In this document: positions 32,121 through 52,565 of the stretch, piece after piece
Numbering within the stretch: position 1 is the stretch's first letter
Layout: every line of letters starts with the position of its first letter
NCBI RefSeq assembly: GCF_017348835.2
Contig: NZ_CP071375.1
Reading direction: 5' to 3' (one strand)
Length of the DNA: 64,000 bases
Source of the DNA: Escherichia coli
GTDB lineage: Bacteria; Pseudomonadota; Gammaproteobacteria; Enterobacterales; Enterobacteriaceae
Made by a program: the position numbers and the translations under genes
The notes under the pieces: model-generated
Seen by the model: only the letters and a program-made list of their open reading frames with translations
The model's database searches: none
What the model was told of the DNA's origin: nothing

Positions 32121-32135
32121 AGGCAGCTCCTGCAA

Positions 32136-32810: not shown

Positions 32811-32897
32811 CTTAATGCCTCTTATATTTATGCTGGCCGCCATGAATATGGCGGCCATTTTAACTTACTGAAAAAACAAGATGATTATTTTAAATAT

Positions 32898-33440: not shown

Positions 33441-33669
33441 GATGCATTCCTTAATAAGTTTATTTTGTTTTGTTAAGAGTCTGTATCTCTTGGAAACAAA
33501 TTTCTCACATCAAAAAGGTTGCCGCAATGTAAACATATTGTTTTGTTGATTTAAAACAAATTAACTAATGCGATATAAATACAACAAATGATTCGCTATA
33601 ACAAACATTTTTGAAACTGATTAATTACCGTAAATTACCGTAAATAACATTTATGGGATGAATAAAAAA

Positions 33670-33704
33670 GCCAAAATCATTCATAGGAATGATTTTGGCT
33701 TTTT
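33670..33704 (-). terminator. Hairpin (12-bp stem GCCAAAATCATT/AATGATTTTGGC) flanked by A/T runs, terminator downstream of yehE
   Basis: Perfect inverted repeat with T-run on both strands. Confidence 0.6.
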
Positions 33705-33731
33705 AAATATGCTTAAAACGGTGTTGGCAAA

Positions 33732-34013
33732 TTAATCGTAGCGATTTAACACGATTTTGCGTTTGTCGTTATTACCCACAGCTACCACTTCTGTCGTAAC
33801 GCCTTTTGCAGTAGAAGAAGCACGATAGTTGGTTTCAACTCGTTGTAACAACTGCCCACAACGTTGCTGAAGATGATTATTAACAACATCCATACTGCAT
33901 GTAGGGGAACTAATTCTGCCATTGATGGTTAATGTTGCAGTATCAGAAGAGAACGCGGGTGATGCTAGTCCATAAGCAAGAAAAACAGCTCCTGACAGCC
34001 AATACTTATTCAT
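33732..34013 (-). CDS. yehE: Uncharacterized secreted protein YehE (93 aa)
   Basis: 93-aa ORF with signal peptide; synteny upstream of yehD. Confidence 0.8.
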   Translation of the reverse strand: MNKYWLSGAVFLAYGLASPAFSSDTATLTINGRISSPTCSMDVVNNHLQQRCGQLLQRVETNYRASSTAKGVTTEVVAVGNNDKRKIVLNRYD

Positions 34014-34274: not shown

Positions 34275-35384
34275 TTAGACCGCGCGGAAGGAAATCTCGC
34301 CTGGAATGACTTCACCCTGCCAGTAGAGCTGAGCTGCAACGCGGTCAGCCAGCTGGCGGTAGATAGCGGTAAATTCGCTCTCCGGACGGCTGATAACCGT
34401 TGGCGTGCCTTTATCGAGATCCTCACGTAAGGAGATGTGTAACGGCATCTGCCCCAGCAGCTGTGTATGGTATTTTTCAGCCAGTTTCTCTGCACCACCG
34501 GTACCGAAAATCGGTTCATGGTGACCACAGTTACTGCAAATATGCACACTCATGTTCTCGACAATACCGAGCACCGGAACCTCGACTTTCTCGAACATCA
34601 CAATGCCTTTTTTCGCATCGATCAACGCGATGTCCTGCGGGGTGGTGACCACAACTGCACCAGTTACTGGAATGTTTTGCGCCAGCGTCAATTGAATGTC
34701 ACCGGTGCCTGGCGGCATATCAAGCACCAGATAGTCGAGATCCGGCCACAAGGTTTCCTGCAACATCTGCATTAACGCCTTGCTCGCCATCGGTCCACGC
34801 CACACCATCGCATTGTCGTCAGTGACCAGATAACCAATTGAATTGGTTGCCAGGCCATGAGACATAATCGGTGCCATATGGGTACCGTCCGGCGAAGTTG
34901 GACGCTGATTTTCTGCGCCCAGCATGGTGGGAATTGATGGACCGTAGATATCGGCGTCCAGAATGCCGACTTTCGCCCCTTCCGCCGCCAGTGCCAGCGC
35001 CAGGTTTACCGCCGTGGAGGATTTACCCACGCCGCCTTTACCGGAACTGACCGCAATGATGTTCTTCACGCCATTAATACCCGGCTGATTCTTCACGCGT
35101 TTTAAGGTGGCGATATTGTGCGACAGTTTCCAGTCGATAGCTTTCGCCCCGGTGATACGCAGCAGTTCGGCGCTACATTGCTCTTTTAACTCTTCAAACG
35201 CGCTATGCCAGACGAATGGCATAACCAGTTCCACATGCAACGTGTCGTCCATCCAGGCGACATGGTGCAACGCTTTCAGCGTGGTGAGGTTATGCTTCAG
35301 GGTTGGGTGCTGAAAATTGGCCAGTGTCCCGGCGACCATTGCGCGCAAGGCTTCTGGTGATTTGGCCTGGGATTGTTCGTTCAT
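34275..35384 (-). CDS. apbC: Fe-S cluster carrier ATPase ApbC/Mrp (369 aa)
   Basis: P-loop GKGGVGKS; start assigned to MNEQSQAK with GGAG RBS. Confidence 0.92.
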   Translation of the reverse strand: MNEQSQAKSPEALRAMVAGTLANFQHPTLKHNLTTLKALHHVAWMDDTLHVELVMPFVWHSAFEELKEQCSAELLRITGAKAIDWKLSHNIATLKRVKNQPGINGVKNIIAVSSGKGGVGKSSTAVNLALALAAEGAKVGILDADIYGPSIPTMLGAENQRPTSPDGTHMAPIMSHGLATNSIGYLVTDDNAMVWRGPMASKALMQMLQETLWPDLDYLVLDMPPGTGDIQLTLAQNIPVTGAVVVTTPQDIALIDAKKGIVMFEKVEVPVLGIVENMSVHICSNCGHHEPIFGTGGAEKLAEKYHTQLLGQMPLHISLREDLDKGTPTVISRPESEFTAIYRQLADRVAAQLYWQGEVIPGEISFRAV

Positions 35385-35515
35385 CCCGACTCCTTTTTTG
35401 TATAGATAAACCATCAGCTGATAGTTTACCTGAAGAATATAGAGAAGTACTTACTTAACATTTTCCCATTTGGTACTATCTAACCCCTTTTCACTATTAA
35501 GAAGTAATGCCTACT

Positions 35516-37558: not shown

Positions 37559-37588
37559 AAGGCGCTGCATCGACAGCGCCTTTTCTTT
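37559..37588 (+). terminator. Rho-independent terminator of metG
   Basis: Hairpin AAGGCGCTG-catcga-CAGCGCCTT followed by TTTTCTTT. Confidence 0.8.
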
Positions 37589-37689
37589 ATAAATTCCTAA
37601 AGTTGTTTTCTTGCGATTTTGTCTCTCTCTAACCCGCATAAATACTGGTAGCATCTGCATTCAACTGGATAAAATTACAGGGATGCAGA

Positions 37690-40600
37690 ATGAGACACTT
37701 TATCTATCAGGACGAAAAATCACATAAATTCTGGGCGGTTGAGCAACAGGATAATGAGCTTCATATTAGATGGGGTAAAGTCGGTACTAACGGGCAAAGT
37801 CAGATAAAAAGTTTTTCAGATGCTGCTGCAGCGGCAAAAGCGGAGCTTAAGCTGATCGCAGAGAAAACGAAAAAAGGCTATGTGGAAAATGCTTCAGCAA
37901 ACGTGCATATCTCCCCCATCACCAAAGCCACTCCTGAAGTTGAAACTTCCCCTGAGAGTAAAAACCAACGCCCGTGGCTGGCTGATGATGCAGTTATTCC
38001 GGTAACTGACGATATTAACCGATTTGCTTTTCCTCATCGCTCTCGCCCCAGAGAGATCAATTATCTGCGCAAAGACGGTGAGATATGGAAGCGTATTGCA
38101 GATAACACCAGGGCATATGATCCCGACAACAATTACCGCTCTTATCCTGAAAACTGGCAGCAGGCTTTTGCTGAGTTACAAAGGCGAATTCTGGATAATC
38201 AACAGACAGGGAGTGCGCAATCTGATGCAGCATTGCTCTGGAGTTTTTGGAACTCTTACTCTGCAGATGAACTGGTCGATGACTTAGTCATTCGCTGTGG
38301 TCTGGAAAGCGCCGTTGAAATCGCCCTTTTTGCCCTTCAACTCAAATATAAACCAGTAAAAGGCGCAGTAACCACCATCATTCCACCTAATCACGAAGCA
38401 GAATCGCTACCTAGTTGGCATCAACGTCTATGTCATCATCTTTCACTCGCTTCAGAAGATGAGTGGCAACGCTGTGTAGATAAAGTACTCACCGCCATTC
38501 CGACGCTATCCCCCGCACGGCAACCTTTTGCGGCGCTACTGCTCCCTGAACGCCCGGATATCGCCCATGCTATAGCTCTACGCTATGCAGACCAAAACGT
38601 CCCGGCGATCACCTGGTTAAGTATGATGGTAAGCGATGATGTTGCCCTGGCCATCCAGGAAATATATGGTTTCCCACCGCTATATAATGATTTCCGCAAA
38701 TATCTGGCTACGTTGCTGGCAAATAATGGAATGCGTGGTGTAAGCCGGATTCTTCTCAAGCTACCTGTCGACTATCCCGTAAAATACACGGACCTTTTCA
38801 CTCACATACACGCCAATGCTGAAGATCTTGTCAAATGGCTATGGAAAACGAATCACCCGGATGCGATTCAAATTCTGATCCTCGGTGTAAATGGCAAGAA
38901 AAAGCACCTGGAATACTTAAGCAAAGCCTGCCAAAAACATCCCGCTGCGGCTATTGCCGCTTATGCTACTTTGCTGGCAATACATGAAAATAATGAGTGG
39001 CGTAAAGCGCTTGTCAAACTGATTACTGCCACGCCAGAGTTAGTATGCGAGGTCATTCCCTGGGTTAATGCTAAGGCGGCAGGCATCTTATCTGAATGTC
39101 GTCCGCTGCCAGTAGCTGAAGAATGTGAATATGCCACTGTGGATATGTTGCCGGAGCTGCTTGTCGCTCCACCGTGGATAATAAATAAGAAAAAGAATGT
39201 CATACCCGTATTTGATTTACCGGTACTTCCCATTCCTGCCGTCACGGATATCACACCAGGAATTACAGAGTTAATCAGTCATACTGACATATCCAGATTC
39301 AGTGAAATCGCGCAATATCAGGCATCACAGCAAACCTTATTTACCGATCTGCCACTAATTGAAAAAGAAAGCTGGGAGACATCTTTCATTCCTTTTACAC
39401 CAGAACAACAAATCCTTTGGCAATTAGGTTTTAATGAATGGCTGCATTGCGAAAATGACTTACATGAAAAAAAATATATACCGCAAAGCGCTGTTGATGC
39501 CTTGTTGCGCTTTGATTTTCCAGCACTAAAAGCTGAGTTTGCGAAATATCACAACAATGCCAACAAAAGCTGGAATCTATCTGCGCTTTGTTACTTACCG
39601 GGACAACAGGCGATCTCATTTCTCAACCAAATAATCATTGAGGAGCGATATTCAGGTGAGAAAGAGATTCTGGCGGTTTTTGGTAGTACGGCCATTCCTG
39701 CGTTTATGACCTGCTTGCAACGAGATCATCAACGCCTGTGGATATTCACCCTTTTTATTGGAGCCAGTGAACTAGCCTTACCAATGGCGCAGCGGTTACA
39801 GAAAAAAATGGGTTACAAGGATGCCGTTAATTGGCTGGCAAATAACCCGCGCCATGCCGCCGCCGGGCTACTGCCTTTGGCGCTGGGCAAACCGTGCCAA
39901 AATCGGGAATATGCCCGCCAGGCACTCCTCCTGCTAGTGAAATTAAACCAGCGAGAAACGATTGAGGAAATCACCCAAGGATATAATCAACCTGATGTTT
40001 TAGCTGCGCTGGCAACATTATTTGATAGCGACCCACTGGAAGAATATCCTGCAAAAATCGCCCCACTGCCCGGCTTTTATCAGTTCCCCTTATGGCGCAG
40101 ACCTCGGCTTAAAAGTAACAACCTGCCTCTGCCAGATGACACTATGCGCCACCTCGGCACAATGTTGAGCTTTCCACGCGACATTACCTCCTACGCTGGG
40201 CTGGCGATCATCAAAGAGACCTTCACCCGCGAATCACTGGCTGACTTTGGCTGGGATCTCTACACGGCATGGACAGAAGCTGGCGCACCCGCAAAAGAGA
40301 ACTGGGCATTTACCTCGCTGGGGATTCTAGGCAATGACGACACCGCGCGTAAACTAACCCCGCTCATCCGCGCCTGGCCGGGTGAATCCCAGCATAAACG
40401 CGCGGTTTACGGGCTGGATGTGTTAGCCAGTATCGGTAGCGACATTGCGCTTATGTTGCTTAATGGCATTGCGCAAAAGATTAAATTCGTTGCATTACAG
40501 GAACATGCCAGCGACAGAATCAATATGGTCGCCGAAAATCGCGGACTGACAATGGCCGAACTGGAAGATCGCCTGGCGCCGGATTTAGGGCTTGATAGCA

Positions 40601-41490
40601 GTGGCTCGCTGATACTGGATTTCGGCCCCCGCAAATTCACCGTTGGTTTTGACGAAACCTTAAAACCTGTAGTGTGCGATGCAAACGGCAAAGTCCTGAA
40701 AGATTTACCTAAGCCAAACCAGAGCGATGATAAAACACTGGCAACTGACGCAGTTAATCTCTTCAAACAGTTGAAAAAAGATGTTCGTGCTATCGCCAGC
40801 CAGCAAATTACCCGTCTGGAACAGGCTATGTGCCAGCGCAGACGCTGGACGGCAGAGCAGTTCCGCCTGTTTCTGGTGGAGCATCCGCTGGTACGTCACT
40901 TAACCCGACGGCTGTTATGGGGAGTATATACTGAGGAAAACACGCTGATTGCCTGCTTCCGGGTCGCAGAAGATAGCACTTACAGCGATGCGCAGGAAGA
41001 GCTATTCACGTTACCAGCAGGAAACATCGGTATTCCGCATGTGCTGGAAATATCCCCTGAATCCGCCGCTGCATTCAGGCAAATTTACGCTGATTACGAA
41101 CTGCTTCCCCCTTTCCAACAGCTCGAGCGAGGTAGCTATCACCTTGCTGATAATGAACGTAATACTCACGAACTGACACGCTGGCAAGGACGGCTTTGCC
41201 AGGCCGGACGCATTGTCGGGCTGGAACGCCGAGGCTGGCAACGTCTGGAAGAAAGCGGCAGCGTTTATGCGATGCGCAAAACAACCCCTCATGGCGATCT
41301 CGAACTTGAAACGGAACCTTTTTCATTAATTTATGGTGAAACGGGGTATGGCGACCAGCTACCGGTTGAAAGCGTAAAAATCACCTCGCCAGATGATCGC
41401 TACGGTAAACAATCCTCACTCACTTTCTCCATGCTCGACGACATCACCGCCAGCGAGCTGATTAACGACATCGAATCACTGTTTGATTAA
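37690..41490 (+). CDS. molR: MolR-like large protein, paralog 1 (1266 aa): N-terminal WGR domain + long DUF4132-type body
   Basis: N-terminus MRHFIYQDEKSHKFWAVEQQDNELHIRWGKVGTNGQSQ is a WGR-domain signature; remainder recognised as the YehI/MolR family; apparently intact here. Symbol assignment is from memory and tentative. Confidence 0.7.
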   Translation: MRHFIYQDEKSHKFWAVEQQDNELHIRWGKVGTNGQSQIKSFSDAAAAAKAELKLIAEKTKKGYVENASANVHISPITKATPEVETSPESKNQRPWLADDAVIPVTDDINRFAFPHRSRPREINYLRKDGEIWKRIADNTRAYDPDNNYRSYPENWQQAFAELQRRILDNQQTGSAQSDAALLWSFWNSYSADELVDDLVIRCGLESAVEIALFALQLKYKPVKGAVTTIIPPNHEAESLPSWHQRLCHHLSLASEDEWQRCVDKVLTAIPTLSPARQPFAALLLPERPDIAHAIALRYADQNVPAITWLSMMVSDDVALAIQEIYGFPPLYNDFRKYLATLLANNGMRGVSRILLKLPVDYPVKYTDLFTHIHANAEDLVKWLWKTNHPDAIQILILGVNGKKKHLEYLSKACQKHPAAAIAAYATLLAIHENNEWRKALVKLITATPELVCEVIPWVNAKAAGILSECRPLPVAEECEYATVDMLPELLVAPPWIINKKKNVIPVFDLPVLPIPAVTDITPGITELISHTDISRFSEIAQYQASQQTLFTDLPLIEKESWETSFIPFTPEQQILWQLGFNEWLHCENDLHEKKYIPQSAVDALLRFDFPALKAEFAKYHNNANKSWNLSALCYLPGQQAISFLNQIIIEERYSGEKEILAVFGSTAIPAFMTCLQRDHQRLWIFTLFIGASELALPMAQRLQKKMGYKDAVNWLANNPRHAAAGLLPLALGKPCQNREYARQALLLLVKLNQRETIEEITQGYNQPDVLAALATLFDSDPLEEYPAKIAPLPGFYQFPLWRRPRLKSNNLPLPDDTMRHLGTMLSFPRDITSYAGLAIIKETFTRESLADFGWDLYTAWTEAGAPAKENWAFTSLGILGNDDTARKLTPLIRAWPGESQHKRAVYGLDVLASIGSDIALMLLNGIAQKIKFVALQEHASDRINMVAENRGLTMAELEDRLAPDLGLDSSGSLILDFGPRKFTVGFDETLKPVVCDANGKVLKDLPKPNQSDDKTLATDAVNLFKQLKKDVRAIASQQITRLEQAMCQRRRWTAEQFRLFLVEHPLVRHLTRRLLWGVYTEENTLIACFRVAEDSTYSDAQEELFTLPAGNIGIPHVLEISPESAAAFRQIYADYELLPPFQQLERGSYHLADNERNTHELTRWQGRLCQAGRIVGLERRGWQRLEESGSVYAMRKTTPHGDLELETEPFSLIYGETGYGDQLPVESVKITSPDDRYGKQSSLTFSMLDDITASELINDIESLFD

Positions 41491-41502
41491 AAGGATTTAA
41501 CA

Positions 41503-44500
41503 ATGAAAACCTATATTTATCAGGACGAAAAATCACATAAATTCTGGGCGGTGGAGCAGCAGAGAAACGAGCTGCATATTACCTGGGGTAAAGTCGGCAC
41601 TAACGGGCAAAGTCAGGTAAAAAGCTTTGCAGATGCTGCGGCGGCGGAAAAAGCGGAACTGAAGCTGATTGCGGAGAAGGTGAAGAAGGGGTATGTGGAG
41701 CAAGTAGACGCTAACGCTCACTCACATGATGCCTCAGCAAAGAAAGTCCTGGTCACAGAGGAAAAAGCCTCAATAAATCACCAGGCAGCAACTAATGGTT
41801 TACCCTGGCTGGCAGATAACGATCCCATTATTCTTCCCCCGAATATTGCCCGCCATGCCCTCAGCCACCGCCTTTGGCCGGGAGAGCCAGTAAAAAAGCC
41901 AACCAAACCCGAGAAACAAAATTTAATTTCCCGATTGGCAAATCGTACTTATCATTATTATAAAAATCTGACTTTCGATTACAGCTCATGCTCTGATGAA
42001 TGGGCTGATGCGATTAGCCAGGCAATCAGCTTAATTAAGGCCCAAAAGACTGAGATACCCGCGCGTACTATGGCGGTACTTACTTTTCTGGAAATATGTT
42101 TTTGTCAGGGCTGGAATGATGAAACCTCACCCGAGTTGCTGGATGAAATTGTAAGCACCTTCGGTATCGAATACGCAACTGAAACTGTCATCTTCTGGTG
42201 GCAAATTGATTTCGATTTTGACTATAAAGATGAACATTTGACTTTCTTTATTAATTATGGAGATAGCAGCAAGGACAGTTATAGAAGGAATAACGACAAA
42301 TTTAGTTTACGTCTGCGTAAACATTTATCACTAGCAGAAGAAGAAGTATGGCAAAATTGCATTGCAAAATTACTCGTTGCGTTACCAGATATATCACTCT
42401 ATCGCCAACCGTTAATTGCCATTTTAATGCCAGAAATACCCGAAGTGGCCCATGAGATCGTACATCGTTTACACCAGGTCGCAGATGTTCCACAACTTGA
42501 AATGTTGAAACTGGTAGCGACAGATCCATTCACGCTCGAAATACTGGAGAACTATCAATACATTGATGTATTTAACACCTATGGTGCCAGTTGGTCAGCT
42601 ACGGTATTACGGGAGCAAGGTATAGCGGCACTGGCTCGCCTGGCTCCCTATGCTGAAGAAGATAATTGCGGTGACGTACTGAAATGTATTAATCATCCGT
42701 TGGCCATTACGGCACTCATCGAAGCCGCCGATACTAATAAACGCTGTTATGAACGACTAATAAAAAGTGCCGAAAATTTTCCTTCTGCAACGATAGTGGC
42801 ATTAGCCGAAGCATTGGTAAAAAAAGATGATAAACGCAAACATATGTTGCTGGTTTCATTACTTAATGCAAATCCTTTATTGGTCGAAAAATTAGTCATC
42901 GGATTATCGTCGCAAGCGGCAAATTTATTGCAACAATGTCAGCAATTGCTGAATAGTCGCAATGAAGATTTTGCAAACTCAGAAATTCTACCAATGGTAC
43001 TAGTCTCGCCGCCCTGGGAAACTCAAAATAAAAATAACGACAACAGTCCTGTGGGTAAATACCCGGCGAAAATCCCCCCTTTGCCGTTGTTTTATCAACC
43101 TCCATTATGGACTCGCCCGAAACTCAAAAATAGCAGCAAGGTACTGCCAGATAGCGCCCTCCTCCACCTCGGTGAAATGCTCCGCTTCCCTCAGGAAGAG
43201 GCTCTGTATCCGGGATTATTGCAGGTGAAAGATGCCTGTACCGCCGACTCACTGGCTGAATTTGCCTGGGATCTGTTTACCGCCTGGCTGACTGCGGGCG
43301 CACCGTCGAAAGAGAGTTGGGCGTTCACTGCGTTAGGCGTTCTTGGTAACGATGACACCGCTCGCAAACTGACGCCATTAATCCGCGCCTGGCCTGGTGA
43401 ATCCCAGCATAAACGCGCCACCGTCGGGCTTGATATCCTCGCCGCTATCGGTAGTGATATCGCCCTGATGCAGCTTAACGGCATTGCTCAGAAACTGAAA
43501 TTCAAAGCTTTACAGGAGCGGGCGAAAGAGAAAATTGCCGACATTGCTGAAAGCCGCGAACTCACGGTGGCGGAGCTTGAAGATCGGTTAGCACCAGATC
43601 TCGGTCTGGATGATAACGGTTCGTTGCTGCTGGATTTCGGCTCACGCCAGTTCACCGTCAGCTTTGATGAAACCTTAAAACCGTTTGTGCGTGATGTTTC
43701 TGGCAGCCGTCTGAAAGACCTGCCCAAACCAAACAAAAGCGATGATGAATCACAGGCGAACGATGCTGTTAACCGCTACAAACTGCTGAAAAAAGATGCG
43801 CGTACCGTCGCCGCCCAGCAGGTAGCAAGGCTGGAATCCGCCATGTGCCTGCGTCGCCGCTGGTCACCGGAAAACTTTCAGCTCTTCCTGGTTGAGCATC
43901 CGCTGGTTCGCCACTTAACCCGCCGTCTGATTTGGGGCGTTTATAGCGCCGAAAACCAGCTGCAGGCTTGCTTTCGCGTAGCGGAAGATAACAGCTACAG
44001 CACCGCTGACGATGATCTTTTCACCCTGCCGGAAGGCGATATCTCTATTGGTATTCCTCACGTTCTGGAAATATCACCGACGGATGCTGCCGCCTTTGGT
44101 CAGCTTTTTGCCGACTACGAACTGTTACCACCGTTCCGCCAGCTTGACCGTAACAGTTACGCCCTGACAGAAGCCGAGCGCAACGCCAGCGAACTGACCC
44201 GCTGGGCAGGCAGAAAATGCCCGAGCGGTCGGGTAATGGGGCTGGCGAATAAAGGCTGGATAAAGGGCGAACCACAGGATGGAGGCTGGATCGGCTGGAT
44301 GATCAAACCTCTGGGCCGCTGGTCGTTAATCATGGAAATCGATGAAGGCTTTGCAGTGGGTATGTCACCAGCCGAACTTAGCGCTGAGCAGCTCTTAAGC
44401 AAGCTGTGGCTATGGGAAGGCAAAGCGGAAAGCTATGGCTGGGGGAGTAATTCAACACAGGAAGCGCAGCTCTCCGTACTCGATGCCATCACCGCCAGCG

Positions 44501-44535
44501 AGCTAATTAACGATATTGAAGCCCTGTTTGAATAA
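41503..44535 (+). CDS. MolR/YehI-family paralog 2 (1010 aa): WGR domain + DUF4132-type body lacking an internal segment of about 240 aa
   Basis: N-terminal WGR nearly identical to paralog 1; conserved C-terminal motif ITASELINDIEALFE; internal module absent relative to paralogs 1 and 3. Confidence 0.7.
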   Translation: MKTYIYQDEKSHKFWAVEQQRNELHITWGKVGTNGQSQVKSFADAAAAEKAELKLIAEKVKKGYVEQVDANAHSHDASAKKVLVTEEKASINHQAATNGLPWLADNDPIILPPNIARHALSHRLWPGEPVKKPTKPEKQNLISRLANRTYHYYKNLTFDYSSCSDEWADAISQAISLIKAQKTEIPARTMAVLTFLEICFCQGWNDETSPELLDEIVSTFGIEYATETVIFWWQIDFDFDYKDEHLTFFINYGDSSKDSYRRNNDKFSLRLRKHLSLAEEEVWQNCIAKLLVALPDISLYRQPLIAILMPEIPEVAHEIVHRLHQVADVPQLEMLKLVATDPFTLEILENYQYIDVFNTYGASWSATVLREQGIAALARLAPYAEEDNCGDVLKCINHPLAITALIEAADTNKRCYERLIKSAENFPSATIVALAEALVKKDDKRKHMLLVSLLNANPLLVEKLVIGLSSQAANLLQQCQQLLNSRNEDFANSEILPMVLVSPPWETQNKNNDNSPVGKYPAKIPPLPLFYQPPLWTRPKLKNSSKVLPDSALLHLGEMLRFPQEEALYPGLLQVKDACTADSLAEFAWDLFTAWLTAGAPSKESWAFTALGVLGNDDTARKLTPLIRAWPGESQHKRATVGLDILAAIGSDIALMQLNGIAQKLKFKALQERAKEKIADIAESRELTVAELEDRLAPDLGLDDNGSLLLDFGSRQFTVSFDETLKPFVRDVSGSRLKDLPKPNKSDDESQANDAVNRYKLLKKDARTVAAQQVARLESAMCLRRRWSPENFQLFLVEHPLVRHLTRRLIWGVYSAENQLQACFRVAEDNSYSTADDDLFTLPEGDISIGIPHVLEISPTDAAAFGQLFADYELLPPFRQLDRNSYALTEAERNASELTRWAGRKCPSGRVMGLANKGWIKGEPQDGGWIGWMIKPLGRWSLIMEIDEGFAVGMSPAELSAEQLLSKLWLWEGKAESYGWGSNSTQEAQLSVLDAITASELINDIEALFE

Positions 44536-44544
44536 GGAAAGAGC

Positions 44545-47500
44545 ATGGACAAGGAATTACCGTGGCTGGCTGATAACGCCCAACTGGAACTGAAATATAA
44601 AAAGGGTAAAACACCACTCAGCCATCGCAATTGGCCGGGCGAACCAGTGCCTGTTATCACTGAAAGCATCATTCAGACACTGGGTGATGAATTGCTACAA
44701 AAAGCTGAGAAGAAAAAAAACATTGTCTGGCGTTATGAAAATTTTTCACTGGAGTGGCAGTCCGCCATCACGCAGGCCATCAACTTGATCGGCGAACACA
44801 AACCCTCAATCCCGGCCCGGACAATGGCGGCGCTAGCCTGTATCGCGCAAAATGACAGCCAACAGTTGCTCGACGAAATCGTCCAACAAGAGGGGCTGGA
44901 ATATGCGACTGAGGTGGTGATTGCACGCCAGTTTATTGCGCGGTGTTATGAGAGTGATCCTCTGGTAGTGACATTGCAGTATCAGGACGAGGATTATGGC
45001 TATGGTTATCGCTCAGAAACCTATAACGAATTCGATCTCCGACTGCGTAAGCATCTCTCTCTGGCAGAGGAAAGCTGCTGGCAGCGTTGCGCCGACAAAC
45101 TCATTGCCGCACTACCAGGAATAACCAAAGTTCGCCGCCCTTTTATTGCGCTGATCCTCCCGGAAAAACCAGAAATAGCCAATGAGTTGGTAGGCCTTGA
45201 ATGCCCGCGAACTCATTTTCATTCTAAGGAGTGGTTAAAAGTTGTTGCTAATGACCCCACAGCGGTGAGAAAACTCGAACACTACTGGAGCCAGGATATA
45301 TTTAGCGATCGAGAAGCCAGCTACATGTCGCATGAAAACCACTTCGGCTACGCGGCCTGCGCCTCCCTTTTGCGCGAACAAGGACTGGCAGCCGTTCCGC
45401 GCCTGGCAATGTATGCTCATAAAGAAGATTGCGGCAGTCTGCTGGTACAAATTAACCATCCGCAAGTCATCCGCACCTTGCTGTTAGTTGCTGATAAAAA
45501 CAAACCCAGCCTGCAACGTGTGGCTAAATACAGTAAAAACTTCCCCCATGCGACGCTCGCCGCACTGGCAGAACTGCTGGCGTTAAAAGAACCACCAGCC
45601 CGCCCTGGTTATCCAATCATCGAAGACAAAAAGCTGCCTGCACAGCAAAAAGCTCGAGATGAATACTGGCGTACGCTGTTACAAACGCTGATGGCATCGC
45701 AGCCACAACTGGCAGCAGAAGTGATGCCGTGGTTAAGTACTCAAGCCAGGGCAGTGCTGAAGAGTTATTTATCGGCACTGCCAAAACCGGTTATTGATGG
45801 CACCGATAACAGCAATCTGCCTGAAATCCTCGTTTCACCACCGTGGCGTAGTAAGAAAAAAATGACAGCTCCACGTCTTGATTTGGCACGGCTCGAATTA
45901 ACTCCGCAAGTTTACTGGCAACCAGGCGAACGAGAGAGGCTTGCCGCCACTGAGCCTGCCCGTTATTTCAGCACGGAATCTCTTGCGGAACGCATGGAAC
46001 AAAAAAGTGGACGAGTTGTATTACAGGAACTGGGTTTTGGGGATGATGTATGGCTGTTTTTGAATTATATACTCCCCGGAAAACTGGATGCTGCACGCAA
46101 TTCACTCATTGTTGAGTGGCATTACTACCAGGGGCGGGTTGAAGAGATCCTGAATGGCTGGAACTCCCCGGAAGCACAATTAGCAGAACAGGCGCTTCGC
46201 AGCGGTCACGTAGAAGCGTTAATTAACATATGGGAAAATGACAACTACTCACGTTATCGTCCGGAAAAGAGTGTCTGGAACCTGTATTTATTGGCACAGT
46301 TGCCGCGTGAGATGGCTTTGACCTTCTGGCTGCGTATCAATGAGAAAAAACATCTGTTCGCGGGTGAGGACTATTTTCTCAGTATCCTCGGATTGGATGC
46401 GCTACCAGGTCTGCTGTTGGCTTTTTCACATCGTCCAAAAGAAACATTTCCGTTAATTTTAAATTTTGGCGCAACAGAACTGGCCCTGCCTGTTGCCCGC
46501 GTCTGGCGACGTTTCGCGGTGCAGCGTGATCTGGCTCGCCAGTGGATTTTACAATGGCCGGAACATACGGCTACTGCACTTATCCCTCTTGTCTTCACCA
46601 AATCTAGCGATAAAAGCGAAGCTGCATTACTTGCCCTGCGTTTACTTTACGAACATGGGCATGGCGAATTGCTACAAACTGTAGCCAATCGTTGGCAGCG
46701 TACAGATCTATGGCCTGCCCTGGAACAATTACTTAAACAGAGTCCAATAGAGATTTACCCGGCACGCATTCCAAAAGCCCCTGATTTCTGGCATCCGCAA
46801 ATGTGGTCCAGGCCGCGCCTTATCACTAATAATCAAACTGTTACCGATGACGCTCTGGAAATTATCGGCGAAATGCTGCGCTTTACCCAGGGGGGACGTT
46901 TTTATAGCTGGCTGGAACAACTGAAAACGTTCTGCCAGCCACAAACGCTGGCAGCTTTTGCCTGGGATCTCTTCACTGCGTGGCAACAAGCTGGTGCCCC
47001 CGCAAAAGACAACTGGGCATTTCTGGCGTTAAGTCTCTTTGGTGACGAAAGCACGGCACGGGATCTGACGACACAGATCCTCGCCTGGCCACAAGAAGGC
47101 AAATCTGCCCGTGCTGTCAGCGGCCTGAACATCCTTACCCTGATGAATAATGATATGGCGCTGATACAGCTGCATCATATATCGCAACGGGCTAAATCCC
47201 GCCCCTTACGTGATAACGCGGCGGAATTTCTTCAGGTGGTCGCAGAAAATCGCGGGCTAAGCCAGGAAGAGCTAGCGGACAGATTAGTCCCAACCCTGGG
47301 CCTTGATGATCCGCAGGCGTTGAGTTTTGATTTTGGTCCCCGGCAGTTTACCGTTCGCTTCGATGAAAACCTCAACCCGGTTATCTTTGATCAGCAAAAC
47401 GTTCGCCAGAAAAGCGTTCCCCGGTTGCGCGCCGATGACGATCAACTGAAAGCGCCCGAGGCACTGGCCCGACTAAAAGGGCTAAAAAAAGATGCCACTC

Positions 47501-48177
47501 AGGTGAGCAAAAACCTGCTCCCGCGTCTTGAAACGGCCCTACGTACCACCCGACGCTGGTCGCTGGCAGATTTTCATTCTCTGTTTGTTAATCATCCCTT
47601 TACCCGTCTGGTTACCCAGCGATTAATATGGGGGGCTTATCCGGCAAATGAACCGCGTTGTTTACTCAACGCCTTTCGTGTGGCCGCAGAGGGGGAGTTC
47701 TGCAATGCGCAAGATGAGCCCATTGGCCTGCCTGCGGATGCTCTGATTGGCATTGCCCACCCGTTAGAAATGGCAGCAGAAATGCGCAGTGAATTTGCAC
47801 AGCTTTTTGCCGATTACGAAATTATGCCGCCTTTTCGCCAGTTGGCGCGGCGCACGGTGCTGCTGACGCCTGACGAGTCAGCCAGTAACAGCCTGACTCG
47901 CTGGGAAGGTAAATCCGCTACCGTTGGGCAACTTATGGGAATGCGATACAAAGGCTGGGAGTCAGGCTATGAGGACGCATTTGTCTATGACTTAAGTGAA
48001 TACCGGCTGGTCCTTAAGTTTTCACCCGGTTTTAACCACTACAATGTTGATAGCAAAGCGCTAATGAGCTTCCGTTCTCTTCGAGTGTACCGTGACAATA
48101 AATCCGTCACTTTTGCCGAACTTGATGTGTTTGATTTGAGTGAGGCGTTAAGCGCACCTGACGTCATTTTCCATTAA
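44545..48177 (+). CDS. yehI: DUF4132-family protein YehI (1210 aa), paralog 3, no WGR domain
   Basis: Begins at the conserved LPWLADN motif that lies about 95 aa into paralogs 1 and 2; 1210 aa as I remember for YehI. Confidence 0.8.
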   Translation: MDKELPWLADNAQLELKYKKGKTPLSHRNWPGEPVPVITESIIQTLGDELLQKAEKKKNIVWRYENFSLEWQSAITQAINLIGEHKPSIPARTMAALACIAQNDSQQLLDEIVQQEGLEYATEVVIARQFIARCYESDPLVVTLQYQDEDYGYGYRSETYNEFDLRLRKHLSLAEESCWQRCADKLIAALPGITKVRRPFIALILPEKPEIANELVGLECPRTHFHSKEWLKVVANDPTAVRKLEHYWSQDIFSDREASYMSHENHFGYAACASLLREQGLAAVPRLAMYAHKEDCGSLLVQINHPQVIRTLLLVADKNKPSLQRVAKYSKNFPHATLAALAELLALKEPPARPGYPIIEDKKLPAQQKARDEYWRTLLQTLMASQPQLAAEVMPWLSTQARAVLKSYLSALPKPVIDGTDNSNLPEILVSPPWRSKKKMTAPRLDLARLELTPQVYWQPGERERLAATEPARYFSTESLAERMEQKSGRVVLQELGFGDDVWLFLNYILPGKLDAARNSLIVEWHYYQGRVEEILNGWNSPEAQLAEQALRSGHVEALINIWENDNYSRYRPEKSVWNLYLLAQLPREMALTFWLRINEKKHLFAGEDYFLSILGLDALPGLLLAFSHRPKETFPLILNFGATELALPVARVWRRFAVQRDLARQWILQWPEHTATALIPLVFTKSSDKSEAALLALRLLYEHGHGELLQTVANRWQRTDLWPALEQLLKQSPIEIYPARIPKAPDFWHPQMWSRPRLITNNQTVTDDALEIIGEMLRFTQGGRFYSWLEQLKTFCQPQTLAAFAWDLFTAWQQAGAPAKDNWAFLALSLFGDESTARDLTTQILAWPQEGKSARAVSGLNILTLMNNDMALIQLHHISQRAKSRPLRDNAAEFLQVVAENRGLSQEELADRLVPTLGLDDPQALSFDFGPRQFTVRFDENLNPVIFDQQNVRQKSVPRLRADDDQLKAPEALARLKGLKKDATQVSKNLLPRLETALRTTRRWSLADFHSLFVNHPFTRLVTQRLIWGAYPANEPRCLLNAFRVAAEGEFCNAQDEPIGLPADALIGIAHPLEMAAEMRSEFAQLFADYEIMPPFRQLARRTVLLTPDESASNSLTRWEGKSATVGQLMGMRYKGWESGYEDAFVYDLSEYRLVLKFSPGFNHYNVDSKALMSFRSLRVYRDNKSVTFAELDVFDLSEALSAPDVIFH

Positions 48178-48237: not shown

Positions 48238-48555
48238 ATGATCGTGCAAAAAGAGCTGGTTGCTATTTACGATTATGAGGTCCCTGTACCTGAAGATCCG
48301 TTTTCCTTCAGACTTGAGATCCATAAATGCTCTGAATTATTTACAGGTTCCGTCTATCGACTGGAGCGATTCCGGCTACATCCAACATTTCGTCAACGTG
48401 ATCGAGAAGATGCTGACCCGCTAATAAATGATGCGTTGATTTATATAAGAGATGAGTGTATTGATGAGCGGAAATTACGAGGTGAATCACCTGAAACTGT
48501 AATAGCAATTTTTAATCGTGAACTACAGAATATATTCAACCAAGAAATAGAATAA
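48238..48555 (+). CDS. yehK: Uncharacterized protein YehK (105 aa)
   Basis: 105-aa ORF; synteny. Confidence 0.75.
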   Translation: MIVQKELVAIYDYEVPVPEDPFSFRLEIHKCSELFTGSVYRLERFRLHPTFRQRDREDADPLINDALIYIRDECIDERKLRGESPETVIAIFNRELQNIFNQEIE

Positions 48556-48664
48556 TATACTCTAGATAATTCAAGTCGCAGCACATGCAACTTGAAGTAT
48601 GACGAGTATAGCTTTATTAAAGGGGGAAGCGGTTTTCCCCCTTAGATGCGTTTCAATTTGCCCG

Positions 48665-48754
48665 TTACTTCAACAAATCAATCAACCGTAACAGAGCTAC
48701 TAATAGCTCCAGTACAGCAATGAGCACGGTTAACTTTTGTGTCAGCGTGTCCAT
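48665..48754 (-). CDS. zorO: Type I toxin, ShoB/Zor-like small hydrophobic peptide (29 aa: MDTLTQKLTVLIAVLELLVALLRLIDLLK)
   Basis: Not in the ORF track (below size cutoff). ATG with AGGAGA SD 4 nt upstream; single predicted TM helix with charged C-terminus; about 175-nt 5' UTR; divergent antisense sRNA upstream. Symbol from my recollection of the EHEC zorO-orzO locus, unverified. Confidence 0.65.
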   Translation of the reverse strand: MDTLTQKLTVLIAVLELLVALLRLIDLLK

Positions 48755-48935
48755 CCGCTCTCCTTATTAAGGAGCGCAACACCAGCACCTTACCCTTACA
48801 CTGCCTGTCGATACTGGTTTACGTATGTTGGACCACGATGTTGCACTCCGGATCAGGGCACCACCTGCAGCACCACCCGTCCGGTAGCCAGGACTTGAAA
48901 TAGGTTCGATCCGGCGCAACGTCCCAACGGTCTGG

Positions 48936-48992: not shown

Positions 48993-49075
48993 GTTGGAAC
49001 ACGATGTTGCACAGGCTGTGGTGTTAGGCCTGAAAATAGTAAATAAAAGAACCTGCCTCACCAGCAGGTTTTTTT
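48993..49075 (+). ncRNA. orzO: Antitoxin sRNA (OrzO/OhsC-like) divergent from the toxin gene
   Basis: Short transcript bounded by the promoter and a rho-independent terminator (CCTGC-ctcacca-GCAGG + T7 at 49053-49075); its first 20 nt (48993-49012) repeat 48827-48846 within the toxin 5' UTR with 19/20 identity, giving antisense complementarity. Confidence 0.6.
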
Positions 49076-49186: not shown

Positions 49187-50275
49187 ATGTCACCGCAGAA
49201 TAATCATCTGCAGCGTCCGCCTGCTGCTGTGTTATACGCCGATGAACTGGCAAAATTAAAACAAAATGATACCGCACCTTGCCCGCCCGGTTGGCAGTTA
49301 AGTTTGCCTGCGGCCCGTGCTTTTATCCTTGGCGATAGCGCGCAAAATATTAGCCGTAAAGTGGTGATTAGTCCCTCCGCTGTCGAACGTATGTTAGTCA
49401 CTCTTGCCACCGGACGCGGTTTGATGTTGGTGGGGGAACCTGGCAGCGCAAAATCTCTCCTGTCTGAATTACTGGCAACCGCTATTAGCGGCGATGCCGG
49501 GTTAACCATCCAGGGCGGCGCATCTACTACCGAAGATCAAATCAAGTACGGCTTGAACTACGCCCTGCTTATCAATCATGGTCCATCAACGGAAGCGCTG
49601 GTCCCTGCCCCGCTTTACCAGGGAATGCGCGACGGCAAAATCGTCCGTTTTGAAGAGATAACGCGTACACCGCTGGAAGTGCAAGACTGTCTGTTAGGTA
49701 TGCTTTCTGACAGGGTGATGACGGTGCCGGAACTCACTGGTGAAGCCAGTCAGCTCTATGCGCGAGAAGGCTTTAATATTATTGCCACTGCCAATACCCG
49801 CGATCGCGGCGTCAATGAAATGAGTGCTGCGCTAAAGCGTCGCTTCGATTTTGAAACTGTCTTTCCGATTATGGATTTCGTCCAGGAGCTGGAGCTTGTC
49901 GCCAGTGCTTCGGCGCGTTTGCTGGCCCATAGCGGTATTCCGCATAAAGTGCCTGACGCGGTACTGGAGTTACTGGTCCGCACCTTCCGCGATCTGCGTG
50001 CCAACGGCGAAAAGAAAACGTCAATGGATACACTAACAGCGATTATGTCCACCGCTGAAGCCGTGAACGTGGCCCACGCTGTGGGCGTCCGCGCCTGGTT
50101 TTTAGCGAATCGCGCAGGTGAGCCAGCCGATCTGGTGGACTGTATTGCCGGAACCATCGTCAAAGATAACGAAGAAGATCGCGCTCGTCTGCGCCGTTAC
50201 TTCGAACAGCGAGTCGCCATACATAAAGAAGCTCACTGGCAGGCTTATTATCAAGCCCGCCACCGCCTGCCGTGA
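49187..50275 (+). CDS. yehL: MoxR-type AAA+ ATPase YehL (362 aa)
   Basis: Walker A GEPGSAKS; MoxR/CbbQ-like; start at MSPQNNHLQRP. Confidence 0.85.
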   Translation: MSPQNNHLQRPPAAVLYADELAKLKQNDTAPCPPGWQLSLPAARAFILGDSAQNISRKVVISPSAVERMLVTLATGRGLMLVGEPGSAKSLLSELLATAISGDAGLTIQGGASTTEDQIKYGLNYALLINHGPSTEALVPAPLYQGMRDGKIVRFEEITRTPLEVQDCLLGMLSDRVMTVPELTGEASQLYAREGFNIIATANTRDRGVNEMSAALKRRFDFETVFPIMDFVQELELVASASARLLAHSGIPHKVPDAVLELLVRTFRDLRANGEKKTSMDTLTAIMSTAEAVNVAHAVGVRAWFLANRAGEPADLVDCIAGTIVKDNEEDRARLRRYFEQRVAIHKEAHWQAYYQARHRLP

Positions 50276-50285
50276 GGAAAGATGC

Positions 50286-52565
50286 ATGAGCGAGCCGTTA
50301 ATTGTCGGCATCCGGCATCATAGCCCGGCCTGCGCCCGGCTGGTGAAATCGTTAATCGAAAGCCAGCGGCCACGATACGTGTTGATTGAAGGCCCGGCTG
50401 ATTTTAATGACCGGGTATACGAACTGTTTTTAGCCCACCAGCTTCCGGTAGCTATTTACAGTTATTGCCAGTATCAGGACGGTACGGCCCCCGGGCGCGG
50501 TGCCTGGACGCCATTTGCTGAATTTTCGCCGGAGTGGCAGGCGCTACAAGCCGCACGTCGTATTCAGGCACAAACTTACTTCATCGATTTGCCTTGCTGG
50601 GCACAGAGTGAAGAAGAGGACGATTCGCCTGATACGCAAGATGAAAGCCAGGCCTTACTGCTGCGTGCCACCCGCATGGATAACAGCGATACCCTGTGGG
50701 ATCACTTGTTCGAAGATGAAAGCCAGCAAACTGCATTACCCTCTGCGCTGGCGCACTATTTTGCCCAACTGCGGGGCGACTCCCCCGGAGATGCACTCAA
50801 TCGTCAGCGCGAAGCCTTTATGGCCCGCTGGATTGGATGGGCGATGCAGCAAAATAATGGCGACGTGTTAGTTGTCTGCGGTGGCTGGCACGCTCCGGCA
50901 CTGGCAAAAATGTGGCGCGAATGTCCGCAGGAAATTAACACGCCAGAATTGCCGTCGCTGGCAGATGCCGTTACAGGTTGTTATCTCACACCCTACAGTG
51001 AAAAGCGCCTTGATGTGCTGGCAGGATACCTTTCCGGAATGCCTGCCCCGGTCTGGCAAAGCTGGTGCTGGCAGTGGGGCTTACAGCAGGCGGGAGAACA
51101 ACTGCTAAAAACGGTTCTTACCCGTTTGCGCCAACACCACTTGCCTGCTTCGACCGCGGATATGGCTGCCGCTCATCTGCATGCGATGGCGCTGGCACAG
51201 TTGCGCGGACATAAACTACCGTTACGCATTGACTGGCTGGATGCCATAGCAGGCTCGCTGATTAAAGAAGCCCTGAACGCGCCGTTGCCGTGGAGCTATC
51301 GCGGCGTTATTCATCCCGACACCGATCCGATTCTGCTAACGTTGATAGACACATTAGCGGGTGACGGATTCGGTAAACTTGCCCCTTCTACGCCACAACC
51401 GCCTCTGCCAAAAGATGTCACCTGCGAACTGGAACGTACCGCAATCTCTCTTCCGGCGGAGCTTACCTTAAATCGCTTTAACCCCAATGGACTAGCGCAA
51501 AGTCAGGTGTTACATCGGCTGGCAATACTGGAGATCCCAGGGATTGTACGCCAGCAGGGAAGCACACTGACACTTGCAGGCAACGGTGAAGAACGCTGGA
51601 AATTAACCCGCCCGCTTAGCCAGCATGCGGCATTGATTGAGGCCGCCTGCTTTGGTGCCACACTCCAGGAAGCCGCACGCCATAAATTAGAAGCCGATAT
51701 GCTGGACGCGGGTGGAATCGGCAGTATCACCACATGTCTTAGCCAGGCGGCGTTAGCGGGTCTGGCGTCCTTCAGTCAACAATTACTGGAGCAACTCACA
51801 TTATTAATCGCCCAGGAAAATCAATTTGCCGAAATGGGCCAGGCGCTGGAAGTGCTATATGCCTTATGGCGGCTGGATGAAATTAGCGGTATGCAAGGCG
51901 CGCAGATATTACAAACGACGTTATGCGCGGCTATCGATCGCACGCTCTGGCTGTGTGAATCCAACGGCAAACCGGATGAAAAGGAGTTTCACGCTCACCT
52001 GCATAGCTGGCAGGCGCTTTGCCATATCCTGCGCGATCTACATAGCGGCGTTAATTTACCCGGCGTTTCTCTTTCTGCGGCGGTAGCCTTACTGGAGCGA
52101 CGCAGTCAGGCAATCCATGCCCCGGCGCTGGATCGCGGCGCGGCTCTTGGCGCACTGATGCGTCTGGAACATCCCAACGCCAGTGCCGAAGCGGCGCTGA
52201 CGATGCTGGCACAGTTTTTCCCGGCACAATCCGGCGAAGCGCTGCACGGTTTGCTGGCGCTGGCCCGCCATCAACTGGCCTGTCAGCCGGCATTTATCGC
52301 CGGTTTCAGCAGTCATTTAAATCAACTAAGTGATGCCGATTTTATCAATGCCCTGCCCGATTTACGCGCGGCGATGGCCTGGCTACCGCCACGAGAACGC
52401 GGGACGCTGGCGCATCAGGTGCTTGAACATTATCAACTGGCGCAACTTCCCGTTTCGGCGCTGCAAATGCCGTTGCATTGCCCACCACAAGCCATTGCAC
52501 ATCATCAACAACTCGAACAGCAGGCACTGGCATCGCTGCAAAACTGGGGAGTTTTCCATGTCTGA
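50286..52565 (+). CDS. yehM: Uncharacterized large protein YehM (759 aa)
   Basis: Start MSEPLIVGIRHHSP 11 nt after yehL stop; no recognisable catalytic motif. Confidence 0.8.
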   Translation: MSEPLIVGIRHHSPACARLVKSLIESQRPRYVLIEGPADFNDRVYELFLAHQLPVAIYSYCQYQDGTAPGRGAWTPFAEFSPEWQALQAARRIQAQTYFIDLPCWAQSEEEDDSPDTQDESQALLLRATRMDNSDTLWDHLFEDESQQTALPSALAHYFAQLRGDSPGDALNRQREAFMARWIGWAMQQNNGDVLVVCGGWHAPALAKMWRECPQEINTPELPSLADAVTGCYLTPYSEKRLDVLAGYLSGMPAPVWQSWCWQWGLQQAGEQLLKTVLTRLRQHHLPASTADMAAAHLHAMALAQLRGHKLPLRIDWLDAIAGSLIKEALNAPLPWSYRGVIHPDTDPILLTLIDTLAGDGFGKLAPSTPQPPLPKDVTCELERTAISLPAELTLNRFNPNGLAQSQVLHRLAILEIPGIVRQQGSTLTLAGNGEERWKLTRPLSQHAALIEAACFGATLQEAARHKLEADMLDAGGIGSITTCLSQAALAGLASFSQQLLEQLTLLIAQENQFAEMGQALEVLYALWRLDEISGMQGAQILQTTLCAAIDRTLWLCESNGKPDEKEFHAHLHSWQALCHILRDLHSGVNLPGVSLSAAVALLERRSQAIHAPALDRGAALGALMRLEHPNASAEAALTMLAQFFPAQSGEALHGLLALARHQLACQPAFIAGFSSHLNQLSDADFINALPDLRAAMAWLPPRERGTLAHQVLEHYQLAQLPVSALQMPLHCPPQAIAHHQQLEQQALASLQNWGVFHV

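Follow-up and report, generated by a model that had tools for sequence, protein, structure and literature searches.

A tandem array of three WGR/DUF4132 paralogs and its association with YehLMPQ in Escherichia coli

Three paralogous genes upstream of yehK

Three large open reading frames (ORFs) follow one another on the plus strand at positions 37690–48177 of the window, a stretch of 64,000 nucleotides (nt) of Escherichia coli DNA (assembly GCF_017348835.2, contig NZ_CP071375.1). From 5' to 3', the successive ORFs are here named P1, P2 and P3. A sequence-only reading of the window had described them as same-strand paralogs of 1266, 1010 and 1210 amino acids (aa), which was confirmed by the ORF coordinates and blastp. 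It had also assigned a WGR domain to P1 and P2 but not to P3, and DUF4132 to all three, in agreement with Pfam. On the evidence given below, P1–P3 are long-diverged paralogs of the gene that comes first, and varies, in a five-gene module, [WGR-DUF4132]n, YehL, YehM, YehP, YehQ. The array contains the following features.

37690–41490, plus strand: P1, 1266 aa, with WGR, alpha-solenoid, internal module and DUF4132 (RefSeq WP_053883032.1)
41503–44535, plus strand: P2, 1010 aa, a short mosaic allele of yehH/molR (RefSeq WP_053883031.1)
44545–48177, plus strand: P3, which is yehI, 1210 aa, with internal module and DUF4132, without WGR
37705–37896, plus strand: WGR domain of P1, aa 6–69 (Pfam PF05406, 8.6e-19)
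41521–41709, plus strand: WGR domain of P2, aa 7–69 (Pfam, 2.1e-17)
39238–40023, plus strand: internal module of P1, aa ~517–778 (blastp coordinates)
40687–41238, plus strand: DUF4132 domain of P1, aa 1000–1183 (Pfam PF13569, 1.9e-51)
47404–47958, plus strand: DUF4132 domain of P3, aa ~954–1138 (Pfam, 3.3e-46)
43039–44532, plus strand: conserved C-terminal module of P2, aa 513–1010, found family-wide

The DUF4132 domain of P2 was located at aa 734–919 (Pfam, 8.6e-52), and the profile was matched nearly end to end in each of the three proteins (approximately positions 1–179 of the 179 in the model). The Pfam scan of P3 detected no WGR domain. Only 12 nt separate P1 from P2 and 9 nt separate P2 from P3, and a Shine-Dalgarno-like sequence precedes every start.

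In blastp comparisons, the C-terminal ~490 aa of P1 and P2 were 61% identical and the N-terminal ~520 aa 36%. P1 and P3 were 30.5% identical over their full length, and P2 and P3 40–44%. The motif ITASELINDIE(S/A)LF(D/E), which had been pointed out at the C-termini of P1 and P2, was found in both. A long core motif beginning with WDL, said to be common to all three, was exact in P1 and P2 only and degenerate in P3. The proposed absence of an internal module from P2 also held, as blastp placed no segment of P2 opposite residues ~517–778 of P1 and ~440–731 of P3; this makes the missing module ~260–290 aa long, rather than the ~240 aa first estimated. The module is carried by P1, P3 and most family members. 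The start of P3 coincides with the LPWLADN motif that comes after the WGR domain and linker in P1 and P2; WGR was thus lost by a precise truncation between domains. P3 retains the Ser-Glu pair of the C-terminal helix that is invariant in the family.

An assembly artefact, such as a collapsed or expanded repeat of one gene, was ruled out. The paralogs are too diverged for this: their closest stretch of DNA, within the 5' ends that encode WGR, is 84% identical over 197 nt. Moreover, the 10.5 kb of the array occur at 100% identity in the complete genome of E. coli PE164, a pig isolate, and hundreds of complete genomes have the same arrangement.

The genes, their domains, the names yehI and molR/yehH and the RefSeq accessions are already catalogued, so the array itself was known before. 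The present analysis adds the conserved C-terminal unit, the cross-phylum synteny with YehLMPQ, the age of the triplication, the mosaic nature of P2 and AlphaFold models.

A conserved C-terminal unit and the YehLMPQ neighbourhood

A HMMER scan of 1.84 billion representatives yielded 8648 clusters (50% identity) at E<=1e-3 and 2610 at E<=1e-30. The best-matching stretch was almost always residues 513–1010 of P2. In an alignment of 89 sequences, identity to P2 was 50–68% at residues 551–900 and 13–25% at residues 100–500, and the consensus opened with a WGR domain. The conserved unit of the family is thus the C-terminal ~500 aa, preceded by a hypervariable N-terminal alpha-solenoid. The Pfam DUF4132 model spans just part of this unit. 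The family alignment (A1) contained 24 invariant columns, with no Cys and a single His (H853).

AlphaFold models with a predicted local distance difference test score (pLDDT) of 91–92 showed a WGR domain, HEAT-like solenoids and an alpha/beta domain. The AlphaFold2 model of P2, built with the family alignment, had a pLDDT of 91.2 and a predicted template modelling score (pTM) of 0.78. In its N-terminal part, the WGR domain (residues 1–65) is followed by a disordered linker (71–96) and a helical domain (~110–500). A linker with a PPW motif sits where the other paralogs hold the internal module. The C-terminal part consists of HEAT-like helices (550–694), an alpha/beta region (708–972) and a C-terminal helix (995–1009) that bears the invariant S999-E1000. 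Fold searches with the predicted models returned no recognisable enzyme or catalytic fold. When the sequences were compared with solved structures, P2 was matched only via its WGR domain (2ra8), and YehI had no meaningful match.

Among 40 diverse or long family members scanned with Pfam, only WGR and DUF4132 recurred, apart from one fusion to a histidine kinase. The Pfam scans of these members and of P1–P3 detected neither a PARP/ART domain nor a CobN/Mg-chelatase domain, and those of P1–P3 detected no helix-turn-helix (HTH) or other transcription-factor domain. A match to NCBIfam LIC_11051 ('fibronectin-binding') was dismissed as spurious, being at the level of the WGR domain and far under the family cutoff. 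No phage-borne relatives were found in IMG/VR.

In the window, the gene order is metG, P1, P2 (yehH/molR), P3 (yehI), yehK, yehLMPQ. The array and yehLMPQ are ~1 kb apart, with yehK and a toxin-antitoxin locus between them. The four downstream genes are as follows.

49187–50275, plus strand: yehL, MoxR-type AAA+ ATPase (AAA_5), P-loop GEPGSAKS
50286–52565, plus strand: yehM, DUF5682 (Pfam PF18934, 1e-97)
52558–53694, plus strand: yehP, von Willebrand factor A (vWA) domain, metal ion-dependent adhesion site (MIDAS) motif DQSGS at aa 222
53691–55694, plus strand: yehQ, two SWIM-type CxCx5CxH motifs

YehL belongs to the MoxR AAA+ family and has an adjoining vWA/MIDAS partner, YehP. Its Walker B-like sequence is IVRFEE, in which E-E replaces D-E, and its best sequence matches in the PDB were the AAA modules of midasin (1e-9) and MoxR 2r44 (4e-4). 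YehL homologs carry PF07728 (AAA_5) and YehP homologs PF05762 (VWA_CoxE). YehL forms its own subfamily, one of seven MoxR subfamilies (PMC3893208), and our literature searches found no experimentally characterised member of it. In YehQ, Pfam placed SWIM domains at residues 56–88 (9.7e-4) and 160–183 (weak). The PDB sequence search gave no meaningful solved-structure relative for YehM, YehP or YehQ. With NCBIfam, YehL and YehP had only generic sub-threshold AAA/vWA matches, including a weak match of YehP to a cobaltochelatase subunit (6e-4). Literature searches on DUF4132, DUF5682, yehI, yehL, yehM, yehP, yehQ and the molybdate-regulator name found no functional study.

Synteny was analysed in 69 loci, of which 67 came from GTDB species representatives and two from E. 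coli, by searching their ORFs with the E. coli proteins (phmmer). Directly adjoining homologs on the same strand were found for YehL in 46 of the 69 loci, YehM in 44, YehP in 41 and YehQ in 42. Leaving aside the two E. coli loci, 39–44 of the 67 GTDB loci encoded YehL, YehM, YehP and YehQ homologs beside the DUF4132 gene. The usual order was [DUF4132]n-L-M-P-Q, with an exception in Burkholderia (L-M-P-Q-D). The module occurred in gamma-, beta- and delta-proteobacteria, Myxococcota, Actinobacteria, Holophagales and Trichlorobacter. Loci without YehLMPQ homologs were mostly short contigs or additional Massilia paralogs. In a reciprocal test that started from YehM homologs of Mycobacterium, Lysobacter and Comamonas, DUF4132 was immediately upstream of AAA_5-DUF5682 in all three. 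The Mycobacterium and Comamonas loci ran on into VWA_CoxE-SWIM, and the Lysobacter contig stopped inside the gene that follows DUF5682. The Mycobacterium genes for DUF4132 and AAA_5 overlap by 8 nt. When 2275 flanking ORFs were clustered, no further conserved neighbours emerged, only common families (ABC ATPases, LysR regulators, GGDEF/EAL proteins) or genus-level synteny, and the flanking genes were housekeeping genes.

Several tandem copies of the DUF4132 gene preceded a single LMPQ set in some taxa, with three copies in Klebsiella oxytoca and ~3 in Polaromonas, Rhodoferax and Tahibacter. Arrays in four Massilia species (seven loci) comprised 5–7 WGR-DUF4132 paralogs, and dispersed orphan copies were present in the same genomes (eight loci); these counts are from stop-to-stop ORFs, and fragments may inflate them. 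Tandem expansion of the DUF4132 gene thus recurs independently. WGR-less and module-less variants arise repeatedly among the loci.

A YehM protein of Propionibacteriaceae and those of Variovorax/Burkholderia shared 53–55% identity over ~780 aa. This unusually strong conservation across phyla contrasts with the fast-evolving DUF4132 partners, and it may reflect horizontal transfer of the module.

Allelic history, decay and regulation

The common intact long allele of yehH/molR, which encodes 1262 aa, was present on at least 1000 contigs. P2 was 95% identical to it over the C-terminal 495 aa and 46% over the N-terminal ~520 aa, and the long allele had 247 additional residues where P2 has none. 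The shift in identity was sharp, at residue ~515, and coincided with a structural linker between domains. The GC content was 42.6% in the N-terminal part of P2 (41503–43038) and 54.0% in the C-terminal part (43039–44535). The split in identity and the extra residues of the long allele therefore identify P2 as a mosaic short allele of yehH/molR. A full-length relative with 86% identity was found in a cryptic Escherichia lineage.

Among 5426 complete E. coli genomes, 936 covered at least 80% of the full 10.5 kb array. P1-type sequence was present in 1643 of the 5426 at 87–100% nt identity, and the short type of P2 in 410, nearly all at >=99% identity and including O157:H7. The K-12-type middle region was found in 4982 genomes, 3391 of these with at least 80% coverage. 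In K-12, a single gene is found ahead of yehI, the molR pseudogene, which is annotated as frameshifted and with an internal stop. The claim that the molR-like copy is a pseudogene in K-12 thus stood in outline. However, this pseudogene is the positional ortholog of P2 and not of P1; this orthology apart, the description in the sequence-only reading was accurate in the main and its interpretation was supported. The K-12 molR is itself a composite. Its first ~200 nt resemble the start of P1 (96.8%) and its last 1475 nt the end of P2 (96.4%), and the ~2.1 kb in the middle match neither and represent a different allele. P1 is an extra paralog missing from K-12.

The three copies of Klebsiella oxytoca follow the order seen in the window and are 1:1:1 best matches to P1 (56% aa identity), the long yehH allele (61%) and yehI (61%). 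The triplication is therefore older than the split between Escherichia and Klebsiella. The single genes of Erwinia and Serratia were nearest to yehH. The two-gene state of K-12 is probably best explained by a secondary loss of P1 through recombination between the homologous WGR-coding 5' ends.

Pairwise ratios of nonsynonymous to synonymous substitution rates (dN/dS) between alleles were 0.14–0.34, with N-halves above C-halves, and 0.21–0.23 for P1 versus other alleles; metG had 0.01–0.02. Compared with metG, the array genes showed protein evolution at more than 10 times the rate. The dS was 0.3–0.45 for P1 alleles and >1.7 for the N-half of the middle gene, compared with 0.12–0.20 for metG. 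The array genes thus seem to be under purifying selection yet to evolve fast, with deep or imported allelic lineages. At the level of whole genes, the dN/dS of 0.14–0.34 between alleles did not support positive selection.

Decay was seen at several points of the locus. In the ST131 strain 2/0, P1 and yehK are pseudogenes; pseudogenes at the locus were also seen in O157:H7, and yehQ of K-12 has an internal stop, as molR does. In a sublineage of ST131, a resistance transposon lies in this region (PMC9334617). All three DUF4132 genes are intact in strain N96 and in the window. K-12 is a poor model for the locus, since both molR and yehQ are pseudogenes there; the strain of the window keeps every gene intact.

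The regions before and after the array contain the following elements.

37559–37582: metG terminator hairpin, after which the array comes
37663–37682, plus strand: predicted LexA-like SOS box AACTGGATAAAATTACAGGG (CTG-N10-CAG), 8 nt ahead of the start codon of P1, overlapping the ribosome-binding region
48238–48555, plus strand: yehK, 105 aa
48665–48754, minus strand: Zor-Orz type I toxin ORF, 29-aa hydrophobic peptide MDTLTQKLTVLIAVLELLVALLRLIDLLK
49000–49075, plus strand: OrzO-P antitoxin RNA (Rfam RF02083, 99.9 bits)

The predicted LexA box in the array's own promoter suggests, as the best reading, that the array is SOS-regulated in E. coli. The SOS pattern with one mismatch was found 24 times in the window versus 17 expected, which is no enrichment. 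An equivalent box was present in Klebsiella oxytoca (6225–6244 of its locus). Outside Escherichia and Klebsiella no SOS box was found (Erwinia, Serratia and other taxa), and CTG-N10-CAG matches there were within the WGR coding sequence. A published list of LexA-regulated genes with known SOS boxes includes molR (PMC6590174), and in K-12 BglJ-RcsB directly activates this intergenic promoter (PMC3950696). Further downstream, yehL and yehM are upregulated in hns/stpA mutants, and H-NS binds the intergenic region upstream (PMC3686432).

Among the loci examined by phmmer, yehK was found only in the two Escherichia loci, and it had no NCBIfam or PADLOC match. It is frameshifted in strains 2/0 and N96. 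The toxin-antitoxin agrees with the one described by Fozo et al. (2010, PMC2887945), who found z3289/z3290 in tandem in O157:H7; the window contains a single Zor-Orz copy. Positions 48574–48895 of the window are missing from K-12.

In strain PE164, the annotated order is yehBCDE, apbC, metG, DUF4132, DUF4132, yehI, yehK, yehL, yehM, yehP, yehQ. A low-GC stretch (36–40%) lies upstream of apbC, at ~31500–34000 of the window; by this annotation it represents yehE and the fimbrial operon yehABCD.

Adaptor model, rival explanations and known systems

We hypothesize that P1–P3 have no enzymatic role and serve as exchangeable subunits, either adaptors or clients, of an ATP-driven remodelling machine formed by YehLMPQ, and we consider this about evenly balanced between right and wrong. 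Several observations together make it the best reading: the strict synteny, the many adaptors per motor set, the conserved C-terminal module joined to a variable N-terminal part, the lack of an enzyme fold and the MoxR/vWA core. We infer that the conserved C-terminal ~500 aa would dock every paralog onto the common YehLMPQ core. The docking module would consist of the HEAT-like repeats, the DUF4132 alpha/beta domain and the terminal helix with its invariant Ser-Glu. By analogy with the substrates of midasin, the invariant Glu of this helix is a candidate for the ligand of the MIDAS site in YehP. What gets bound would be set by the fast-evolving N-terminal alpha-solenoid, together with WGR and the internal module where these are present; WGR-bearing copies may recognise an end or structure of a nucleic acid. 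A single motor would thereby gain three specificities from the three paralogs.

Some points weigh against this model. The array (LexA, BglJ-RcsB) and yehLMPQ (H-NS) are under separate control and ~1 kb apart in E. coli, and the two may therefore not always be co-expressed. In strain 2/0 of ST131 and in most E. coli, an intact yehLMPQ stands alongside DUF4132 genes that number only two or are in part broken; no single paralog is therefore required. The proposed contact between Glu and MIDAS derives from invariance and analogy. The literature searched reported no interaction between DUF4132 proteins and YehLMPQ, and no effector or output domain was recognisable in the system. Nor can sequence separate the role of an adaptor from that of a client or substrate.

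The biological role of the machine may lie in immunity, DNA-damage handling or cofactor or protein maturation. It is possible, if unlikely, that the array consists of diversifying sensors of an unrecognised immune system against phages or mobile elements, in which WGR and solenoid detect an invader and trigger YehLMPQ. This explanation is about biological role and does not conflict with an adaptor architecture. It would fit the variation in copy number (2 to 3 within E. coli, ~7 in Massilia), the mosaic alleles with sharp breakpoints (95% versus 46% either side of residue ~515) and the depth of the allelic lineages (dS 0.3–0.45 and >1.7, the latter in the N-half of the middle gene, versus 0.12–0.20 for metG). 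The low GC content of the variable parts, the frequent pseudogenisation and insertion of IS/Tn elements, and the type I toxin-antitoxin inside the locus are consistent with it as well, as is LexA/SOS control, which is common for prophage-related functions. However, there was no match to a known defence family and no visible effector, and the locus is outside a defence island. P1–P3, YehK, YehL, YehM, YehP and YehQ were without matches in PADLOC-DB 2.0, and for YehL, YehM, YehP and YehQ there were none even at E<=0.1. The only PADLOC match in the area was a weak one of the nearby ApbC (34275–35411, minus strand) to PDC-M28B (1.8e-8 over ~57 residues), which we regard as irrelevant and most likely due to generic P-loop similarity.

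In a broader and similarly unlikely version, DUF4132-YehLMPQ would be a widespread five-component AAA+/vWA surveillance system, whose arrays of fast-evolving WGR-solenoid proteins serve as interchangeable sensors for damaged or foreign nucleic acid or other invader molecules and feed a midasin-like motor. If true, the 'y-ome' of E. coli would conceal a novel type of bacterial machine for immunity or genome maintenance, and the inactivation of this machine in K-12 by the molR and yehQ pseudogenes would explain why no phenotype has been observed.

A maturation system for cofactor or metal insertion, comparable to CoxD/CoxE, NorQ/NorD and the class I chelatases, seems improbable. The DUF4132 giants of ~1250 aa would be its large substrate-holding subunit, in keeping with the pair of MoxR-type AAA+ and vWA/MIDAS proteins encoded beside a ~140-kDa protein. 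The VWA_CoxE assignment of YehP homologs, the weak cobaltochelatase similarity of YehP (6e-4) and the allusion to molybdate metabolism in the historical name molR also point in this direction. Yet no CobN/Mg-chelatase or other cofactor-binding domain was detected in P1–P3, and no metal-binding Cys/His cluster is evident, as the invariant columns include one His (H853) and no Cys. No gene for a client metalloenzyme is conserved nearby, WGR and SWIM suggest macromolecular rather than metal ligands, and hypervariable paralog arrays would be unexpected for a cofactor carrier. In the class I chelatases themselves (CobN-CobS-CobT; ChlH-ChlI-ChlD), a ~140-kDa subunit works with a MoxR-like AAA+ and a vWA subunit. 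The yeh module shares this architecture; it differs in having WGR, SWIM, DUF5682, paralog arrays and hypervariability, and in the failure to detect a CobN/Mg-chelatase domain in P1–P3.

It is very improbable that the proteins are stand-alone DNA-binding transcription regulators, independent of yehLMPQ, as the designation 'MolR family transcriptional regulator' on some database records implies. One comparative paper describes WGR as the DNA-binding domain of MolR-like transcription factors (PMC7824862). In contrast, P1–P3 are proteins of 1000–1270 aa of solenoid in which Pfam found no HTH or other transcription-factor domain, YehI does not even have a WGR domain, and the strict cross-phylum synteny with YehLMPQ would be left unexplained. 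The molybdate-regulator name had been taken as historical, and it is indeed a legacy label. Finally, the explanation that the array is non-functional, as an assembly artefact or a set of decaying duplicates, can be virtually dismissed: pseudogenes are common at the locus (K-12, O157:H7, ST131) and transposon insertion in the region is tolerated, but all three ORFs are intact in the window and N96, the paralogs are 30–62% identical in aa with DNA matches of at most 84% over 197 nt, the dN/dS is 0.14–0.34, the orthologous triplet exists in Klebsiella oxytoca, and a strongly conserved module is common to the thousands of family members.

The adaptor model gives a testable form to what was a list of 'DUF' genes: one conserved motor and exchangeable giant adaptors with a conserved docking module and hypervariable modular heads. 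Approximately 18 kb of the E. coli chromosome are without assigned function here, encoding three ~140-kDa proteins, a MoxR AAA+, a vWA, a DUF5682 and a SWIM protein. With its system-level context and a genetically broken counterpart in K-12, the locus is a reasonable experimental target, and the invariant C-terminal Ser-Glu, the protein boundaries and the strain background are singled out for experiments.

Among known systems, the WGR giants differ from PARP1, PARP2 and PARP3 in having no ADP-ribosyltransferase domain, and P3 lacks WGR altogether. In contrast to PARP1/2/3, the WGR domain of P2 is N-terminal and predicted to be tethered by a disordered linker (residues 71–96). Kaur, Burroughs, Iyer and Aravind (eLife 2020) reportedly described vWA-MoxR 'ternary' conflict systems with a MoxR-vWA core and large variable partners. 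Like these systems, the yeh module combines a MoxR-vWA core with large variable partners and is distributed preferentially among bacteria with large genomes, such as Myxococcota, Actinobacteria and Burkholderiales. Unlike them, its members and loci scanned contained no effector-associated/death-like domains, caspase-like proteases or TIR.

As in RavA-ViaA, CbbQ-CbbO, NorQ-NorD and CoxD-CoxE, a MoxR AAA+ (P-loop GxPGxAKS) is encoded beside a vWA protein with intact MIDAS, and the expected mode of action would be that of these pairs, an ATP-driven remodelling of a specific partner. Unlike in these pairs, no client enzyme is linked to the yeh module, which has three further obligatory partners: DUF5682, a double-SWIM protein and one to many giant WGR-DUF4132 proteins. 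Midasin (Rea1), a eukaryotic AAA+ ring with a MIDAS domain, removes assembly factors from HEAT-rich pre-60S particles, and its MIDAS binds an acidic residue that is invariant in the substrate. Midasin is one polypeptide of 550 kDa that acts on ribosome precursors, whereas yeh would be a split bacterial system in which the Glu-MIDAS contact is proposed by analogy only. The likeness extends to three features: YehL is closest in sequence to the AAA modules of midasin, YehP would supply the MIDAS in trans, and the partners are predicted to be HEAT-like solenoids.

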